Shown piece after piece: positions 25,074 through 31,279 of a stretch of 35,451 bases of DNA. The notes below the pieces were generated by a model. It ran no database searches, was not told the origin of the DNA, and saw nothing but the letters and a program-made list of their open reading frames with translations. Position 1 is the stretch's first letter. Every line of letters starts with the position of its first letter. A program made the translations under genes and the position numbers. Source of the stretch: a virus (taxonomy: Duplodnaviria > Heunggongvirae > Uroviricota > Caudoviricetes); IMG/VR virus record IMGVR_UViG_2740892422_000002, positions 1 to 35,451 of that record, one strand, 5' to 3'.

Positions 25074-25486
25074 GGGAAACCTCCATACAGATAACGCTGA
25101 AGACAGAGCAGACCGCCGCAACTGCCACCACACAGCCAGAACACCGGATGCACCGGTGACATCATCATCAGCGTGCTGAAGACGCAGCAGAAATACCCCA
25201 GCGCCCAGACCACCCATGACCACACGATGATGTGGCGACCAAAAGCCCGGTAACGGACTTCAGGCAGCAGGCGAAATGGCACATTCCCGAGGCTTGCGCT
25301 GTATGAAAACAACACCACCCCGGCAAAGGACAACAACATCAATACGAACGATCGCCAGCCACATAACATGCTGATGATGAACATGCAGAGTGTCAGTCCG
25401 GCCAGCGGCCATGGCGTTCTCATCAGTCGGGAACAAATCAGCCAGTCACACAGTTTTAAAATTTTGTTCATTACCTTTTTCCACAT
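25061..25486 (-). CDS. polytopic small membrane protein (candidate holin)
   Basis: 141-aa product from ATG at 25486 with GGGA RBS; three to four hydrophobic segments, Cys/Trp-rich. Confidence 0.4.
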   Translation of the reverse strand: MWKKVMNKILKLCDWLICSRLMRTPWPLAGLTLCMFIISMLCGWRSFVLMLLSFAGVVLFSYSASLGNVPFRLLPEVRYRAFGRHIIVWSWVVWALGYFCCVFSTLMMMSPVHPVFWLCGGSCGGLLCLQRYLYGGFPWIR

Positions 25487-25697
25487 TGAATTTTTCCCTG
25501 TACTTCTGGCACTGCCAGAAAATGTCCCGTGTATCCACGGAGTTCCAGCCACGCATGTAGTAGCTGGCGTGTGTGCCGTCATGGCCTGTATAGTCCAGCG
25601 GTTTCGGGGGCGGACCTCCGGCCATGCGGTGCAGAACCTCCTGACGCAGGCGGTCACGCCGCCCGGCTTTCAGTGAGGCATCCCAGCCTTTACCCAT
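25446..25697 (-). CDS. hypothetical protein (lysis cluster)
   Basis: 83-aa ORF whose ATG at 25697 follows the endolysin stop; no transmembrane segment or lipobox. Confidence 0.4.
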   Translation of the reverse strand: MGKGWDASLKAGRRDRLRQEVLHRMAGGPPPKPLDYTGHDGTHASYYMRGWNSVDTRDIFWQCQKYREKFNVEKGNEQNFKTV

Positions 25698-25698
25698 A

Positions 25699-26283
25699 TC
25701 ACCCCCGCGTGGCGGACATGATGCCCAGAGGGGTAAGACAGGCGTCGGTCAGCTTTTCCATGCGGTTAAACCAGCCGTTCAGGTATTTGCCCTGGGCGGG
25801 TTTTGATTTGATGATGTCGGCATAAAAGCGGGAACGACGGACAATACAGCGGGCCAGCAGCCAGTCAGGGGTGGACTGGCTCACGGCCTTGCGGGTACGC
25901 GGCCCGATGATGCCGTCAGCATCCACATCAGCGGCCTCCTGCAAAAGTTTGATAGCCTTTTTAACGCCATGCTGAACCGCCGCATCAAACACAAAAAGCG
26001 CCACGCCATCAGGCCACTGGTCACACCCGGCAGGCAGCCAGTAATCGCGCCAGTAAATCTGCGCAACCTGTTCGCGGGTCAAATCCTTAATGCGGGTATC
26101 CGGTTTGCCGTCGCCGTTGACGTCGGTTTTGCCGTCAATCACACCGTCGCGGCGGTCAGAAATGCCGTATTTGGTTTCGCCGCCACGGTCAGTGGGGTCA
26201 TTGACATAGACGCCTTCGATATCGGGACGCAGAATGAAATTCAGCGCATGTTCAAAGGCCGGGGAGAATTTTTGATTTTCCAT
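25699..26283 (-). CDS. endolysin, glycoside hydrolase family 108-like with C-terminal peptidoglycan-binding domain
   Basis: 194-aa ORF; N-terminal ...ALNFILRPDIEGVYVNDPTDRGGETKYGIS... matches the GH108 catalytic motif; no signal or SAR sequence. Confidence 0.8.
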   Translation of the reverse strand: MENQKFSPAFEHALNFILRPDIEGVYVNDPTDRGGETKYGISDRRDGVIDGKTDVNGDGKPDTRIKDLTREQVAQIYWRDYWLPAGCDQWPDGVALFVFDAAVQHGVKKAIKLLQEAADVDADGIIGPRTRKAVSQSTPDWLLARCIVRRSRFYADIIKSKPAQGKYLNGWFNRMEKLTDACLTPLGIMSATRG

Positions 26284-26338
26284 AAAAGCACCTGTGAAGC
26301 AGATTTAAACGTGGTCTGCTTCATGGTGCCGGAGGCAT

Positions 26339-26362
26339 AAAAAAAGCCGGATTTACCGGCTT
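26339..26362 (-). terminator. Rho-independent terminator-like hairpin with U-tract (copy A of a duplicated element)
   Basis: Minus strand AAGCCGG-TAAAT-CCGGCTT followed by T-run; lies between the secreted-protein gene stop (26385) and the endolysin start (26283). Confidence 0.6.
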
Positions 26363-26384
26363 CATTGAATATAAGGTTATTGGT

Positions 26385-26882
26385 TCAGTTAACTTTACGG
26401 GCAGAACACGTAGTCTTCATTACTGAACGTTCAATTTTTATCTTCCAGCCATTTACTGTTTTTTCGACAGGATCATCTTCAGCTTGCTTTAAATTTTTAA
26501 CTTGCATGAAATTCAGCGGGGCTGGGGTATCATCGTCCCATGATGTCGGGCGAACATAATCAGGGACAACAAAAGGCTCAAAAACAGTTTCACATAAAGC
26601 AGACGTCATTTGAGCGAACTCGTCGCTATCGGGGCGAACCGGTCCTGTAACATACTGCATTTTTATGTTGATTTCGTTATCTCGCACAGACGTCTTTAAA
26701 TCCTGATATACACCTAAGTTAAATCCTTTAAACTCAGCAATGGCAGCGTCACCTTTACCGTACCAGTCGGTATAGTCAACGGATGTTTTTTTCTGAAAAA
26801 CATCTTTGACTTTTTGCTGGAATGTATCCGCCGCTTGTACAGTAGTAACAGTTAGTAAAAGAATAAGGGGAAGATATTTCAT
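26385..26882 (-). CDS. secreted/periplasmic protein of unknown function (AT-rich moron)
   Basis: 165-aa ORF with N-terminal signal peptide MKYLPLILLLTVTTVQA|AD; markedly AT-rich relative to flanking phage genes. Confidence 0.7.
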   Translation of the reverse strand: MKYLPLILLLTVTTVQAADTFQQKVKDVFQKKTSVDYTDWYGKGDAAIAEFKGFNLGVYQDLKTSVRDNEINIKMQYVTGPVRPDSDEFAQMTSALCETVFEPFVVPDYVRPTSWDDDTPAPLNFMQVKNLKQAEDDPVEKTVNGWKIKIERSVMKTTCSARKVN

Positions 26883-27280
26883 TGTTCGTCCTTAAATAGT
26901 TGCATTTGATATTTTCCACGCTCCAGTCGGCGCATTCTTTTGATGGCCTGATATACCGTTTTGTATGTCACTTTGTAACGCTGCACCAGCTCCGCTACGT
27001 TTTTCCCATCAAAATCACGCCAGATGCGCATGTCTCTGATAAGATTTTCCAGTATTTTCCCTTTCGGAACATATACCTGAATCCCACCGATATGATTGCA
27101 AATCGCCACTACCAGCTCAAGGGAGTGGGCAGGGTTAACTCCAAGCCTTATCAGCTCTTGTCGCAACAGAGCATTCAGCTCAGCCAGTAAAGATGGAAAT
27201 CCCGATTTTTCCTGAACATCATCAAAATATTCAAGGATACTGTCGTCCTGATAATCACCAAATAAATCCTGCTCTTTCAT
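26879..27280 (-). CDS. mor: Mor/C-family transcriptional activator
   Basis: 133-aa ORF with acidic N-terminus and C-terminal ...AHSLELVVAICNHIGGIQVYVPKG...YKTVYQAIKRMRR... resembling Mu Mor/C; located directly after the gemA-like gene. Confidence 0.7.
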   Translation of the reverse strand: MKEQDLFGDYQDDSILEYFDDVQEKSGFPSLLAELNALLRQELIRLGVNPAHSLELVVAICNHIGGIQVYVPKGKILENLIRDMRIWRDFDGKNVAELVQRYKVTYKTVYQAIKRMRRLERGKYQMQLFKDEQ

Positions 27281-27828
27281 AGAACTATTCTCCCGCTGTT
27301 TCTGGCGCGGGCATACGCACTGGTCAGTGCATCATATCCGCGCAGTTCCCGCCCGGTTTCGCTCACAGGTAAAGGCACGCCGTGTCGGGCAAAGGCTTCC
27401 CGAATGCAGCGCATATGCCACTGCTTGAGCGTTTCGAGCACAACCTGCAACGATTCCCCATGACACCAGGCCAGCGTGGAAACACCCTGACCACCATTAC
27501 GTCTGGCCGTCAGACGTTCAACGTATTTGTCCAGCGCGGCGTCGCTGATATCGGAGACGAAACCATCAAGAAACATCTGCTGCCAGATTTTATAAATCTT
27601 CTCGCGCGGTGTGACATGCCCCTTAAAGCGACGGCGGGGATGTTTTTTCTGCTTTTTAAAACCGCGCTCTTTCATGGCATCGAGCACTTGTTCCAGTTGT
27701 GCAACAGACAGCTCGCGGCAACTGGTTTTGCCCGTGCACTGCACCAGAAAAGCTCGGTAAGTGTCATCGTCGAGTTGCAACTCCCGACGGGCAACATGAA
27801 TTAATTTAATCAGGGATGTGCGGCTCAT
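27277..27828 (-). CDS. gemA: GemA-like early protein
   Basis: 183-aa ORF immediately upstream of mor, matching Mu gemA in position and size. Confidence 0.6.
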   Translation of the reverse strand: MSRTSLIKLIHVARRELQLDDDTYRAFLVQCTGKTSCRELSVAQLEQVLDAMKERGFKKQKKHPRRRFKGHVTPREKIYKIWQQMFLDGFVSDISDAALDKYVERLTARRNGGQGVSTLAWCHGESLQVVLETLKQWHMRCIREAFARHGVPLPVSETGRELRGYDALTSAYARARNSGRIVL

Positions 27829-28141
27829 TATGTCCCCCGGATTTAAAAATTAATTCAGTGTTGAATAGCTCTTTACTCATTCGCTGTAGCACATCGAGGG
27901 CGGCAACTGCCGCCACTTTATCCTGACTGGCAATGATTCCCCGCAACTCTTCGATAATCCATGCAGGGCTTAATGATTCAGCAATCATCGTGCGCTTTTC
28001 TGAAATTAAATTTTCTCTGGCCTGCTCATAGTGTTGGTATACGACATTATCCAGAAAATAATTTACCTCTTGTTCTGACATGCCACTGGAAATTAAGGTT
28101 GCAGCCATTAAATCAGCATCAGTAATCATCTGTATTTTCAT
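27806..28141 (-). CDS. hypothetical early protein (AT-rich accessory region)
   Basis: 111-aa acidic ORF between gam and gemA. Confidence 0.5.
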   Translation of the reverse strand: MKIQMITDADLMAATLISSGMSEQEVNYFLDNVVYQHYEQARENLISEKRTMIAESLSPAWIIEELRGIIASQDKVAAVAALDVLQRMSKELFNTELIFKSGGHNEPHIPD

Positions 28142-28316
28142 TTCTTAATACCTCTTCGCAATAAAAGATTTCATTGGGATAACGTTTTTGTATGCGCTCA
28201 ATCACCTGCATACATGCCTGCTCTGTGGGCCAGATTTTTTCTGTTGCCGGGATAGCATCACAGGCATCACTCCCGCAGGTGCCAACCAGCAGGACAAAGC
28301 CAATTGACTTAATCAT
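28119..28316 (-). CDS. small secreted or lipoprotein-like protein
   Basis: 65-aa product from ATG at 28316 (MIKSIGFVLLVGTCGSDACD...): N-terminal hydrophobic segment followed by Cys, with four further Cys. Confidence 0.45.
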   Translation of the reverse strand: MIKSIGFVLLVGTCGSDACDAIPATEKIWPTEQACMQVIERIQKRYPNEIFYCEEVLRNENTDDY

Positions 28317-28851
28317 GTTCACTGACTTCCTGTGTTGCTGCCGGAGCTGGTGAATAATCAAGAATGAGATAGCGCATGACGTGGTCGGTGATATTCCAGC
28401 CACTGGAACCACAAATAAAGCGCCCCAGCCGGATATCGATATACGCCATCACAAAACGGGGCATCCCCTGTTTGCACATCTCGTCATCCACTTCAGCAAC
28501 GATGTAAACCGACTCGCAGGTCAGTACGCCTGTCGCAAATTCTTTTGCCAGTGCCGGAATGGCATTGCCTTCCAGCCAGGGCAAAGAGCGGCGGAACGCG
28601 CACCATTGAGCATTATCAACAGCGGGGTGTTCCGTTGTTGCGTTTCGTCTTACTGGCGGCGTTGGACGAGGGCGCGGAACGTCATAAAATCCGTTACATT
28701 CAGTGAGAACTCCGGCATCAACCGCATCACGCAGGAAATACACCATTGACGAGGGCAGCATATTCATTTTTTCAGCCAGAACCCCGCAGGTCAGACGCCC
28801 GTAAGCCCGTAATAATGTGCTGACACCATTCAGAACTTTTGCATCAACCAT
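28309..28851 (-). CDS. hypothetical early protein, possible winged-helix N-domain
   Basis: 180-aa ORF; first gene after gam and a 98-bp spacer. Confidence 0.5.
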   Translation of the reverse strand: MVDAKVLNGVSTLLRAYGRLTCGVLAEKMNMLPSSMVYFLRDAVDAGVLTECNGFYDVPRPRPTPPVRRNATTEHPAVDNAQWCAFRRSLPWLEGNAIPALAKEFATGVLTCESVYIVAEVDDEMCKQGMPRFVMAYIDIRLGRFICGSSGWNITDHVMRYLILDYSPAPAATQEVSEHD

Positions 28852-28949
28852 TTTTTATTCCTCAGTAATCTGTTTCAGGCGCGAGCAATCCCCTGACGCA
28901 TCGCGCCATAATTAAAAGAAAGTGAACTAATTAAATATTAATGGTGGTA

Positions 28950-29474
28950 TTAAATACCGGCTTCCTGTTCAAACGGAATAATAGAAAAATCTTCAATGCC
29001 TGATTTAACTGTAATTCCGGCGACACCTGCGACTGCTTTCGGTTCCAGTAAAATCGCTTCCTTGTTGATTTCCTGTTTCGTGCGAATAAAGCGTTGCAGG
29101 CCAAGACGCTCCAGCGTTTCCATCACCGCATCCACACCGCGAATACTTACCGATGGTGGGCGCTGACGCCATGACACATCGCCGGTTACCAGGTTCGCCG
29201 TCTTCACCTTGCCGCCGTTCGTCAGTTCGTCGCGGTTCGCTTCACACCATCCCTGAACGCCTTTTGAAAGGGTTTCAATACTGGTTTTAAGGGGCGCAAT
29301 CTGTGAGGCGTATTTCTCAGTAATTTCAGCGATAGCGTCATTCATTTCCGTTTCAAGTCGTGCCGCTTCGCGTTGCAGGTCACCAATCCGGCGAATATCA
29401 CACACCACGGCATCGCGGGATTGCGGAACATAAGCTGCTGCGGCACTCTTGATTCGTTTTGCTGGTTTAGCCAT
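28950..29474 (-). CDS. gam: host-nuclease inhibitor Gam (Ku-like DNA end-binding protein)
   Basis: 174-aa ORF MAKPAKRIKSAAAAYVPQSRDAV... with coiled-coil; matches Mu Gam in length and sequence as recalled. Confidence 0.85.
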   Translation of the reverse strand: MAKPAKRIKSAAAAYVPQSRDAVVCDIRRIGDLQREAARLETEMNDAIAEITEKYASQIAPLKTSIETLSKGVQGWCEANRDELTNGGKVKTANLVTGDVSWRQRPPSVSIRGVDAVMETLERLGLQRFIRTKQEINKEAILLEPKAVAGVAGITVKSGIEDFSIIPFEQEAGI

Positions 29475-29494
29475 ATAAATAAAGCTCCTGTTAA

Positions 29495-29785
29495 TTAATA
29501 TTCGCTGTATACAATGCTGGATACAGCACGATTGCTTAATTCCATCTTTTGGGCAATGACATGAATAGCCAGCCCTTCTTTATAAAGTTCACGACACAAA
29601 TATTTGTCGTGCTCACTGACCCGGTATGCACACAACGATATTCCGTGCCTTCTGGCATGTGCCTGTAGGGCGGTTGGGGCAACGTTCAGTTTTTTCGCCA
29701 TTTCCTCGACGGTCATTTTCCCGACACTGGCTTCGATAAATTCCCGGTCTTCGCGTGACCATCTTTTGCGAGGGATTATCATCAT
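29495..29785 (-). CDS. small HTH-containing DNA-binding protein
   Basis: 96-aa product from ATG at 29785 with GGGAAGGAGG RBS; HTH-like segment TVEEMAKKLNVAPTALQAHARRHGIS. Confidence 0.5.
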   Translation of the reverse strand: MMIIPRKRWSREDREFIEASVGKMTVEEMAKKLNVAPTALQAHARRHGISLCAYRVSEHDKYLCRELYKEGLAIHVIAQKMELSNRAVSSIVYSEY

Positions 29786-29801
29786 GCCTCCTTCCCTGAA
29801 A

Positions 29802-30071
29802 TTAATGTTTGGCTGCATCCGGGTTATACCGGAATAACTCGCCTTCGGCTTCCAGCCCAAGTTCTCTGGCTGACTTCAACAACTCCTGGGTTGCTTTTTC
29901 AATAATTTCAGGAGCCATGCTCTTGATAATGCCTGCCATCACGTCATGTGGTCCGATTTGCGCCTTAGGTGACTGTTCTTTCAGTTGCACACTCATTCCT
30001 ACAAAGAAACCTCCTTTTTTCTGAAACTCAACATCTTCCATGCGGTTAAATTCAAAGATTACTTTTGCCAT
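29802..30071 (-). CDS. hypothetical early protein
   Basis: 89-aa product from ATG at 30071 with GAGGAA RBS (MAKVIFEFNRMEDVEFQKKGG...). Confidence 0.5.
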   Translation of the reverse strand: MAKVIFEFNRMEDVEFQKKGGFFVGMSVQLKEQSPKAQIGPHDVMAGIIKSMAPEIIEKATQELLKSARELGLEAEGELFRYNPDAAKH

Positions 30072-30099
30072 TTTGTTATTCCTCACAAATAAGCCGTTA

Positions 30100-30327
30100 T
30101 TAACGCCAGATAATCTGGCAACCATTAAGGCGGGCCGTCCATACGGAACGGGCAACCCCTGATTTATGCTCCATAATCCTGACAGCGTTTCTGACCAGCT
30201 CCGGTGGTGGGCAGGTGATTTCAAGTACCGGGCGGGCTACGCCCAGCCAGGATTCGTTGACGTGGCTGCCGTGCTCCTGTAACCAGGTCTTTACTTCCGT
30301 TGCCATTTTGATATTCCGTGACATCAT
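30100..30327 (-). CDS. kil: Kil-like small protein (by position after B)
   Basis: 75-aa product from ATG at 30327 with GGAGAG RBS, starting 13 nt after the B stop; assignment by synteny with Mu. Confidence 0.45.
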
Positions 30328-30340
30328 GATTTCGCTCTCC

Positions 30341-31279
30341 TTACGTGCGCAGCAGGGTTGAAATATCAACGTCGAGGTCTAATTCACGGAAAGCCTGACG
30401 CAGATAATCTTCATTAACACGTTCACCTTTGCCGTGGGCGGTCATGGCCGCAAGGCGCAGCGAGTGGTTCAGGATGCGAAGCGCACCTGGTTTTTGCGCA
30501 ATCTGCTGTAATAATTCCCGCTCGTTTTCGCCGGTAATTTGCCAGGCATCCGCAATGGCCTTTACATCATCAATTTTGGTTTTATTGATTGCCGTCCGTT
30601 TGGCAATACGGGAAAACAGTCGGGCAAATTCAACCGTTCTGTTACCACCGGTCATGTTTGAATAAACGCGGTGATTCCCCATCAGAACAAGGCCAATACG
30701 GGCGGATTCCTGCAACAGGCGGAGTTCTTCCAGAACTTCAGCGCCAAGATGATCAGCTTCGTCGATAATGACCAGCCCCTGCGTACCTTCAAGGCGGCGT
30801 CGCAAAGCGCGGGAGAGCGGCCCTTTGCGGCGCGGTGCGTCATTCATTCCCAGTTCATACGCCAGTTCAGTGAGACATTCCAGAACACTGGCGCAGGATG
30901 GGGTAATGGTGATCATCCAGACATTGTTATTGGTGCGACGAAATTCGCGGGCTGCTTCAGTTTTTCCCACACCTGGATTACCGCAGATAACAGAAATACT
31001 TTCAGTCAGGCTGGCAAAACGCATACTCGTCCAGATTTGGCGTGCTGTTCTGGTTTCCACAAAACGTGGTGGTTCTGGCAGCTCTGCGGCACGGTGATAG
31101 TTCTCCAGCCAGCGTTCCAGCGTCTGCGCAACACGTTCATTGTCGCCGTTGTACTTGTTATTCACGAATGCGCTTAACGTTCCTGCGGCCACGCCAGACT
31201 CGCGTGCAATTTGTGCATAAGTCGCTTTTTCACTTTCTACAAGCGTGCGCAGTCCTGCGCGAATATCGGAAATATTCAT
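30341..31279 (-). CDS. B: transposition ATPase / target DNA activator MuB
   Basis: 312-aa ORF with Walker A GNPGVGKT and Walker B IIDEADHL; near-identical to Mu B as recalled. Confidence 0.92.

Follow-up and report, generated by a model that had tools for sequence, protein, structure and literature searches.

In bacteriophage Mu, the stretch between genes B and C has long been termed semi-essential (PMC4553209), and a screen of phage accessory genes chose gp13-15, which lie there between gam and gemA, as candidates (bioRxiv 10.1101/2023.04.06.535777). Small genes of the Mu early region are now mined for counter-defence and host-takeover functions. Here we describe the corresponding gam-gemA slot of the IMG/VR virus record IMGVR_UViG_2740892422_000002 (Caudoviricetes), analysed over its full 35,451 nucleotides (the window), in which three open reading frames (ORFs) of 180, 65 and 111 amino acids (aa), named ORF180, ORF65 and ORF111, fill the space between the two flanking genes. 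Its sequence identifies the window as a Mu-like prophage of Escherichia coli whose genes run on the minus strand; positions 27700-29000 are 100% identical to the pig enterotoxigenic E. coli (ETEC) chromosomes ETEC1732, ETEC1734 and ETEC1703. A first-pass annotation, made from the letters alone, had seen in the three ORFs a single AT-rich accessory cluster of a known hotspot, without recognizable families.

Gene content of the gam-gemA slot

We read the region as a variable accessory-gene slot in the early operon, anchored by gam with its 3' hairpin on one side and by gemA on the other, and put the probability of this reading at about 0.8. Its placement in the semi-essential early region of Mu, proposed at first pass, is borne out, and both flanks have Pfam matches. 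The slot and its borders comprise the following features, for which GC denotes the guanine-plus-cytosine fraction and RBS a ribosome-binding site:

28950-29474 (-): gam, matching Phage_Mu_Gam in Pfam at 1.9e-43; counterpart of Mu Gam, a DNA-end-binding inhibitor of host nucleases, and the conserved left anchor of the slot
28852-28949 (-): gam-ORF180 spacer, 98 bp, GC 0.378, with an AT-rich tract, a GC-rich hairpin and the ORF180 RBS, GAGGA
28866-28916 (-): hairpin element with the loop motif GCGUCAGGG, the left border of the variable region
28309-28851 (-): ORF180, 180 aa, Mu gp11 ortholog
28119-28316 (-): ORF65, 65 aa
27842-28336 (-): AT-rich replacement cassette, 495 bp, GC 0.42, with blastn junctions against Mu at 28337 and 27841
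27806-28141 (-): ORF111, 111 aa
27277-27828 (-): gemA, matching GemA in Pfam at 9.1e-33; the conserved right anchor of the slot

Evidence for this reading comes from the slots of relatives. With Gam as bait we surveyed 80 viral contigs, 69 of which carried both gam and gemA and together held 58 distinct slots; counts were taken over the 33 distinct slots whose Gam is at least 90% identical. The slot draws on at least 13 gene families, which shuffle independently, and the hotspot claimed at first pass is confirmed as one of exchangeable accessory genes. In a loosely fixed order, the slot runs from an optional DUF5420 gene through gp11, or a pair of 63- and 75-aa genes in its place, and an optional gp12 to either gp13 or ORF65; it continues with an optional 120- or 129-aa gene, an optional member of the ORF111 family, an optional gp14 and, on the other strand, an optional gp15 or DUF2513 gene, before gemA is reached. 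gp11 is present in 27/33 slots, the ORF111 family in 18/33, ORF65 in 17/33 and Mu gp13 in 14/33. ORF65 and gp13 never occur together (0/33), and one of them is found in 31 of the 33 (Fisher p = 1.5e-7), whereas ORF65 and ORF111 are independent of each other (Fisher p = 0.49). The exact succession ORF180-ORF65-ORF111 accounts for one distinct slot of the 33. By this pattern, ORF180, ORF65 and ORF111 do not form a functional unit, and ORF65 and gp13 are alternatives for one position. Of the earlier view of the three ORFs as a single unit, the tight packing stands; the one AT-rich cluster does not, each ORF belonging to a gene family of its own, and the co-occurrence check that had been suggested revealed no shared travel, each ORF assorting independently among relatives.

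Two further arrangements were seen in the surveyed loci. A DUF2513 gene on the opposite strand often lies between the ORF111-family gene and gemA (locus L008, 1410-1826 (+); locus L006, 4226-4639 (-)), at the position of gp15 in Mu, and may be expressed from the prophage. In distant Mu-like elements (L006, 3157-3696, and several IMG/VR loci) the gene after gam encodes a protein of 179 aa, with an N-terminus that by eye recalls MazG.

At the DNA level, homology to Mu extends over 28337-29761 (gp11, gam and gp9) at 89% and over 27066-27841 (gemA and mor) at 76%, and the cassette between them, which has no Mu counterpart, takes the place of Mu gp12, gp13, gp14 and gp15 (1282 bp). Its left junction lies within the final codons of ORF180 and its right one at the gemA RBS, where Mu homology resumes at 27841. 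The GC of the cassette lies within the lowest 4% of 495-bp windows. Its DNA found no match among 50,697 phage records; among 5,426 complete E. coli genomes, 10 carry the entire cassette and about 50 its ORF65 part alone. We infer that relatives may exchange the cassette through recombination, its junctions then being the 3' end of gp11 and the gemA RBS.

A near-identical prophage in E. coli UMNF18 (L004, 1959-2278) carries a 320-bp insertion with a 120-aa gene between ORF65, which is 60 aa long there, and ORF111. The insertion is bordered by a 20-bp homology overlap and is an example of the gain or loss of a single gene in the slot.

Possible functions of the slot and its hairpin

The products of the slot would be non-essential and would act on the host in the early phase of lytic growth, and an anti-defence or host-takeover activity of its genes is plausible from position only. 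More specifically, the cluster might serve anti-restriction or anti-defence, its proteins disarming the immunity of the host at an early stage of infection, a possibility that we hold tentatively and at well below even odds. The early slot is hypervariable and adjoins Gam, itself a RecBCD antagonist, its rapid module turnover resembles an arms race, all three proteins are small and acidic, and a counter-defence phenotype is reported for a nearby accessory gene of Mu, Mup07 (gnarl2) (10.1101/2023.04.06.535777). However, no named phenotype was reported for the screened Mu slot genes gp13, gp14 and gp15 in the same study (10.1101/2023.04.06.535777), the 39 supplementary files of that screen (Silas et al. 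library) contain no peptide string of any of the three ORFs, and Pfam, PHROGs, NCBIfam and PDB, searched without dedicated anti-defence profiles, hold no characterized anti-defence protein similar to them. Moreover, gp11 is conserved (27/33 slots) and not fast-turning. The slot as such is already known as an accessory-gene region; what is new here are the present alleles, which are absent from the earlier screen library.

The stem-loop after gam that had been noticed at first pass is present, with GGCGCGA at 28878-28884 and TCGCGCC at 28901-28907 separated by a 16-nt spacer. Because 7-bp stems are common in the window (127, of which 13 are GC-rich), the stem-loop is notable only through its conservation. 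The spacer that contains it is kept in Mu, SfMu and E. coli prophages regardless of which gene comes next, and homology between relatives breaks just beyond the hairpin. A covariance model, R1, built from 14 hairpin variants, finds a single copy in the window (71 bits). In 72 of 87 related loci it likewise finds one copy, about 37 nt past the stop codon of gam; among them are loci with a Gam of only 63% identity and an Edwardsiella prophage that had no part in the training. The GC-rich 7-bp stem is lengthened by inner pairs, and the variants fold at -16 to -22 kcal/mol (z -2.1 to -3.5), the window hairpin at -17.4 kcal/mol; the whole 126-nt spacer folds no better than its shuffles (z -1.19). 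The stem is followed by UGAAACAGAUUAC with no U-tract, and a terminator scan reported nothing there; since the U-tract is missing, the hairpin is not a canonical intrinsic terminator. Rfam covariance models run over 26000-30500 gave no match at the hairpin or the cassette, and two sub-threshold matches elsewhere.

Most likely, the hairpin would act in the messenger RNA (mRNA), as an intercistronic stabilizer or processing site, and would thereby set the expression of Gam apart from that of the variable cargo. It is doubtful that it serves instead as a DNA-level or termination signal, that is, as a protein site, a partial terminator or a recombination linker that promotes the swapping of modules. 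In favour of such a signal, conservation of the stem and of the loop motif is mainly one of sequence, only one pair showing a compensatory change; the upstream AT-rich tract is conserved as well, and the hairpin stands exactly where homology between relatives ends and cargo begins. Yet the outer stem is kept in every variant despite base changes, with only the inner pairs differing, a U-tract is lacking, and no candidate binding protein is known for the hairpin.

The second element of the spacer named in the first-pass annotation, the dyad GGTATTAAATACC (GGTATT-A-AATACC) at 28946-28958, is also present and spans the gam stop codon (28950-28952). The window holds 13 dyads of 6 nt against 9.6 +/- 2.9 in shuffles. 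We rejected this dyad as a signal: it occurs at chance frequency, is mostly encoded by the C-terminal codons of gam and is lost in diverged loci.

Several observations weigh against the picture of a slot with alternative cargo and a structured hairpin at its border. The p-values from the slot survey overstate independence because slots are related by descent, and the mutual exclusion of ORF65 and gp13 could reflect alternative alleles at one recombination site and not a shared function. In the hairpin, a single compensatory change was seen (C-G to U-A), and 33 of 500 shuffles reach the observed covariation, which is no convincing excess; as the stem is almost invariant, its RNA structure is not proven. 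Finally, the three proteins found no match among PADLOC profiles, nothing above cutoff in NCBIfam and no real match in a sequence search of solved structures.

The three genes of the slot

ORF180, ORF65 and ORF111 are genuine genes with overlapping stop and start codons. All three were found, on the minus strand, at the coordinates first annotated, which the RefSeq/PGAP annotation of the identical ETEC1732 prophage shares, and they overlap tightly, as had been described, by 8 nt (ORF180/ORF65), 23 nt (ORF65/ORF111) and 23 nt (ORF111/gemA). A Shine-Dalgarno-like motif can be read upstream of each of the three starts, and substitutions in the ORFs cluster at third codon positions when coding status is compared. 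The packing suggests that the genes would be co-transcribed from the early promoter and translationally coupled. Only ORF111 had been called acidic; in fact all three are, with isoelectric points of 5.4 (ORF180), 4.4 (ORF65) and 4.7 (ORF111). The AT-richness ascribed to the whole cluster applies to ORF65 (GC 0.429) and ORF111 (0.414). It does not apply to ORF180, whose GC of 0.516 equals that of its neighbours (gam 0.507, B 0.518 and gemA 0.536, against a window mean of 0.54). Elsewhere, mor (0.433) and the ORF after it (0.404) equal ORF65 and ORF111 in AT-richness.

Contrary to the statement that none of the three has a recognizable family, each matches at least one: ORF180 Pfam PF25754 and phrog_1949, ORF65 phrog_16556 and ORF111 phrog_1988, the last two being small, uncharacterized families of phages. 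Large-database searches with the three proteins recovered only narrow families without annotation; literature searches likewise turned up nothing on gp11, on PF25754 or on PHROG families 16556 and 1988. The one clear Mu homolog among the three is gp11, which lacks a known function, and homology to Mu early genes of known function was not found.

ORF180 is the ortholog of Mu gp11, as their alignment attests: the two share 89% aa identity across 177 residues, the N-terminal ~60 included (E 3e-109, full length), and ORF180 lies directly downstream of gam, as gp11 does in the Mu early operon. The Pfam domain Gp11_C is matched over profile positions 1-78 of 78 with 132.5 bits (cutoff 27; E 7.2e-39), and by all 36 aligned ORF180 homologs. 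About 220 homolog clusters were found in Escherichia and Salmonella, all without a name, and in the phage collection the gp11 family is confined to Mu-like phages; some relatives carry DUF5420 as an insertion between gam and gp11. The protein is read as a winged-helix-like N-terminal domain (residues ~1-60) joined through a Pro-rich linker to the Gp11_C domain (91-168), and its C-terminal tail is divergent because the cassette junction falls in the last codons. The AlphaFold model is poor, with a predicted local distance difference test (pLDDT) of 58, and hints at two parts, the C-terminal one a small beta-barrel. From this layout, gp11 would probably be a nucleic-acid binder, acting through the winged-helix domain and the small barrel. 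Fold matches of the barrel to Tudor-like and DUF551-like proteins, including those from a Foldseek search of BFVD, were not significant. As candidate relatives of gp11 we rejected MIF, which reached only E 0.4 in the sequence search of solved structures, and paralogy with DUF5420 or Mu gp12, to which no relationship was detected.

ORF111 matches phrog_1988 end to end (E 8.3e-43, profile 1-106 of 106), and its family shares the motif AE(S/T)LSxxWIIxxLR...DKxAAVAAL. Close relatives (at least 82% identity, 10 clusters) occur in Escherichia and Salmonella only, and an exhaustive search of 1.8 billion representatives added six further relatives at 40-52% identity. The homologs, among them SfMu gp14, genes of Yersinia Mu-like phages and one of an Edwardsiella prophage, all lie in the gam-gemA slot near its gemA end, and a genome-contig scan found one locus. 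The AlphaFold2 model (pLDDT 74) consists of helices throughout, and fold searches with it returned only generic helical proteins and no specific fold. The product would be a helical, probably oligomeric partner or adaptor adjoining gemA. Its last ~11 residues are variable among homologs and disordered in the model; with the gemA RBS as the right junction of the cassette, these residues are therefore translated from the gemA leader. Designed helical repeats were rejected as relatives of ORF111, nothing real appearing in the sequence search of solved structures, as were GpsB of NCBIfam (sub-threshold, 22 bits against a cutoff of 91) and DUF6308 (sub-threshold, from near-identical sequences).

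A perfect 11-nt AT-rich inverted repeat, TGAATTAATTT at 27797-27807 and AAATTAATTCA at 27847-27857, surrounds the RBS and start of gemA. We rejected it as a conserved element: the repeat is found in the window and in UMNF18, has a mismatch in FDAARGOS_943 and is absent from Mu, and its significance is doubtful.

ORF65 matches phrog_16556 end to end (E 1.2e-25, covering profile positions 2-55 of 55). Alignments of the family show four invariant cysteines (C14, C19, C35 and C53) and a short hydrophobic N-terminus. Beyond Mu-like phages, homologs at 41-54% identity occur in unrelated temperate phages that infect Yersinia, Aeromonas and Hafnia, where they sit in early operons beside erf, recT or recE and before xis/int. 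Genes of the family, 45% identical, also occur on large Klebsiella pneumoniae plasmid records (~214 kb, H107-H112). ORF65 would do the same job as the zinc-finger protein gp13 of Mu, most likely binding and inhibiting a host protein, a proposal suggested by their exclusive occupation of one position, and it may resemble the prophage lysis protein YdfD.

YdfD is a lysis protein of the Qin prophage that inhibits IspG of isoprenoid synthesis (PMC8835842). That ORF65 is itself a remote member of the YdfD/YebW family (DUF1482), a small host-toxic protein blocking a host enzyme, we consider unlikely. The two families agree in size (56-65 aa), in the hydrophobic N-terminus, in a central T-x-Q-x-C-(M/L) and in aligned cysteines; a pairwise hhalign comparison gave E 0.002 over 33 columns that include TxQxC, one of 11 ORF65 family members matches Pfam DUF1482 (PF07358) at E 0.059, and genes of both families have recombination genes as neighbours in temperate-phage early operons, recE in the case of DUF1482. 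On the other hand, the hhalign probability is just 13.8% against DUF1482 and 2.8% against YebW alone, ORF65 of the window and five divergent members have no DUF1482 match even at E <= 10, and C35 is the sole Cys column invariant across both families in a joint alignment. For comparison, the gathering score of PF07358 is 25 bits, and YdfD and YebW score 91 and 123 bits. The link is thus only suggestive, a lead and not a membership.

A bolder composite of these ideas appears improbable. It would make ORF65 and the unrelated Mu gp13 interchangeable, isofunctional Cys-rich inhibitors of one host target, with ORF65 a remote YdfD relative whose family is spread among Mu-like, lambdoid and other temperate phages, and the hairpin a previously undescribed cis-regulatory RNA that fixes both Gam expression and the boundary of cargo swaps.

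Lipoproteins follow the lipobox rule [LVI][ASTVI][GAS]C after a basic N-region and a hydrophobic core of about 10-15 residues, and small early phage lipoproteins of the superinfection-exclusion type exist. ORF65 had been described at first pass as lipoprotein-like, a label that did not hold up in motif tests: VGTC is not a strict lipobox, the Cys stands at position 14 behind a core of 8-9 residues, and the basic N-region is missing in orthologs. It is very unlikely that ORF65 is an exported lipoprotein which, as T5 Llp or Cor do, brings about superinfection exclusion by blocking a receptor or the entry of DNA. The hydrophobic N-terminus is indeed followed by a Cys, and the ortholog of a Yersinia phage carries the formal lipobox ISSC, the one pass among four orthologs. 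But the residue before the Cys is T or P in ORF65 of the window and most relatives, so that a strict lipobox is lacking, the Cys lies at positions 12-14, the N-terminal Lys is missing from the Yersinia and Aeromonas orthologs (two orthologs have no K or R in the first 7 residues), and lipidation of C14 would leave three conserved cysteines.

That any of the ORFs is no gene but a frame left open by chance in AT-rich filler is scarcely credible: they are short, without functional annotation and from small families, and ORF65 shows about equally many synonymous and non-synonymous codon changes in close comparisons, but homologs along the full length in other genera and phage types, at identities as low as 35-54%, keep the invariant Cys or the motifs, PHROG families are matched end to end, and each overlapping start has an RBS, all three genes being annotated by NCBI.

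Neighbouring features and counterparts in known systems

Around the slot lie the following genes, in local order:

30341-31279 (-): B
30103-30324 (-): kil-like gene
29498-29782 (-): Mup09-like gene
26879-27280 (-): mor
26385-26882 (-): 165-aa secreted-looking ORF after mor
downstream of the 165-aa ORF: GH108 endolysin gene

A second variable slot lies between the kil-like and Mup09-like genes, where an 89-aa ORF (29802-30071 (-)) stands in place of Mu Mup06-08, which include gnarl2/Mup07. This ORF was rejected as a Mup07/gnarl2 homolog, tblastn showing no similarity to Mup06-08. The 165-aa ORF (GC 0.40) begins with a classic signal peptide, MKYLPLILLLTVTTVQA/AD, and has no match in Pfam, PHROG or NCBIfam; at its position, relatives have a different gene or none. 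It is followed by a canonical terminator-like hairpin with a T-run at 26343-26363 (-), probably the end of the early/middle transcript. The GH108 endolysin gene comes directly after mor and this one ORF, with a Mup18 homolog downstream of it (25482-25697). No separate homolog of the Mu late activator C was found in the window, where MuC matches the mor gene alone at 32% identity; given this absence and the layout of the endolysin and Mup18 genes, late-gene control must differ from that of Mu. An Rfam match to the Yersinia small RNA Ysr206 at 26701-26929 (+), antisense to the junction of mor and the 165-aa ORF, scores 28 bits against a gathering score of 124 and is probably due to chance.

What the analysis yields is a map of the slot, with conserved anchors, about 13 shuffling families, alternatives (ORF65 and gp13) and independents (ORF65 and ORF111), and this map makes the three genes and the hairpin readily testable. 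The general picture of this kind of region is unchanged by it; the most useful leads are the exclusivity of ORF65 and gp13, the possible link to YdfD and the conserved hairpin after gam.

ORF180 agrees with Mu gp11 in its domain, in its place directly after gam and in the spacer before it, with hairpin and RBS; it differs by four extra residues and another C-terminal tail (TQEVSEHD). With Mu gp12-gp15 (E13-E15), the cassette shares the slot between gp11 and gemA, the small, tightly packed genes and a presumed non-essential status. However, Mu has four genes in 1282 bp there and the window two genes in 495 bp, without sequence similarity to gp12, gp13 or gp14 and without an opposite-strand gene like gp15 or DUF2513. 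In Mu and SfMu, moreover, a GC-rich hairpin and T-run precede gemA, which are absent from the window. That upstream hairpin reads GGCGGTG..CACCGCC, followed by the C/T-rich CCCTTT, at ~2203-2260 in Mu (L001) and ~1401-1453 in SfMu (L002).

Mu gp13, a double zinc-finger protein, and ORF65 are both Cys-rich proteins of about 60 aa at the same position in the slot; BLASTP gave no alignment between them, ORF65 has no CxxC, and gp13 gives zinc-ribbon matches. YdfD and YebW resemble ORF65 in length, in the hydrophobic N-terminus, in TxQxC and in an early-operon site near recombination genes, whereas ORF65 falls below the Pfam threshold of their family and has four invariant cysteines against two in YdfD. 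SfMu gp14 (PHROG 1988) is 40% identical to ORF111 over 92% of its length, with the same C-terminal motif and in the same slot, but two more genes precede gemA in SfMu, and ORF111 in the window runs into gemA. BLASTP found no alignment of ORF111 with Mu gp14, and SfMu carries both families side by side.

For the hairpin, the closest likeness is to intercistronic mRNA-stabilizing hairpins, such as the repetitive extragenic palindromic (REP) elements in the malE-malF spacer. Both are stable GC-rich stem-loops within an operon, without a U-tract, after a gene likely needed in larger amount. Unlike REP elements, the hairpin after gam is not a dispersed repeat; it is single-copy, specific to Mu-like phages and distinguished by a conserved loop motif.

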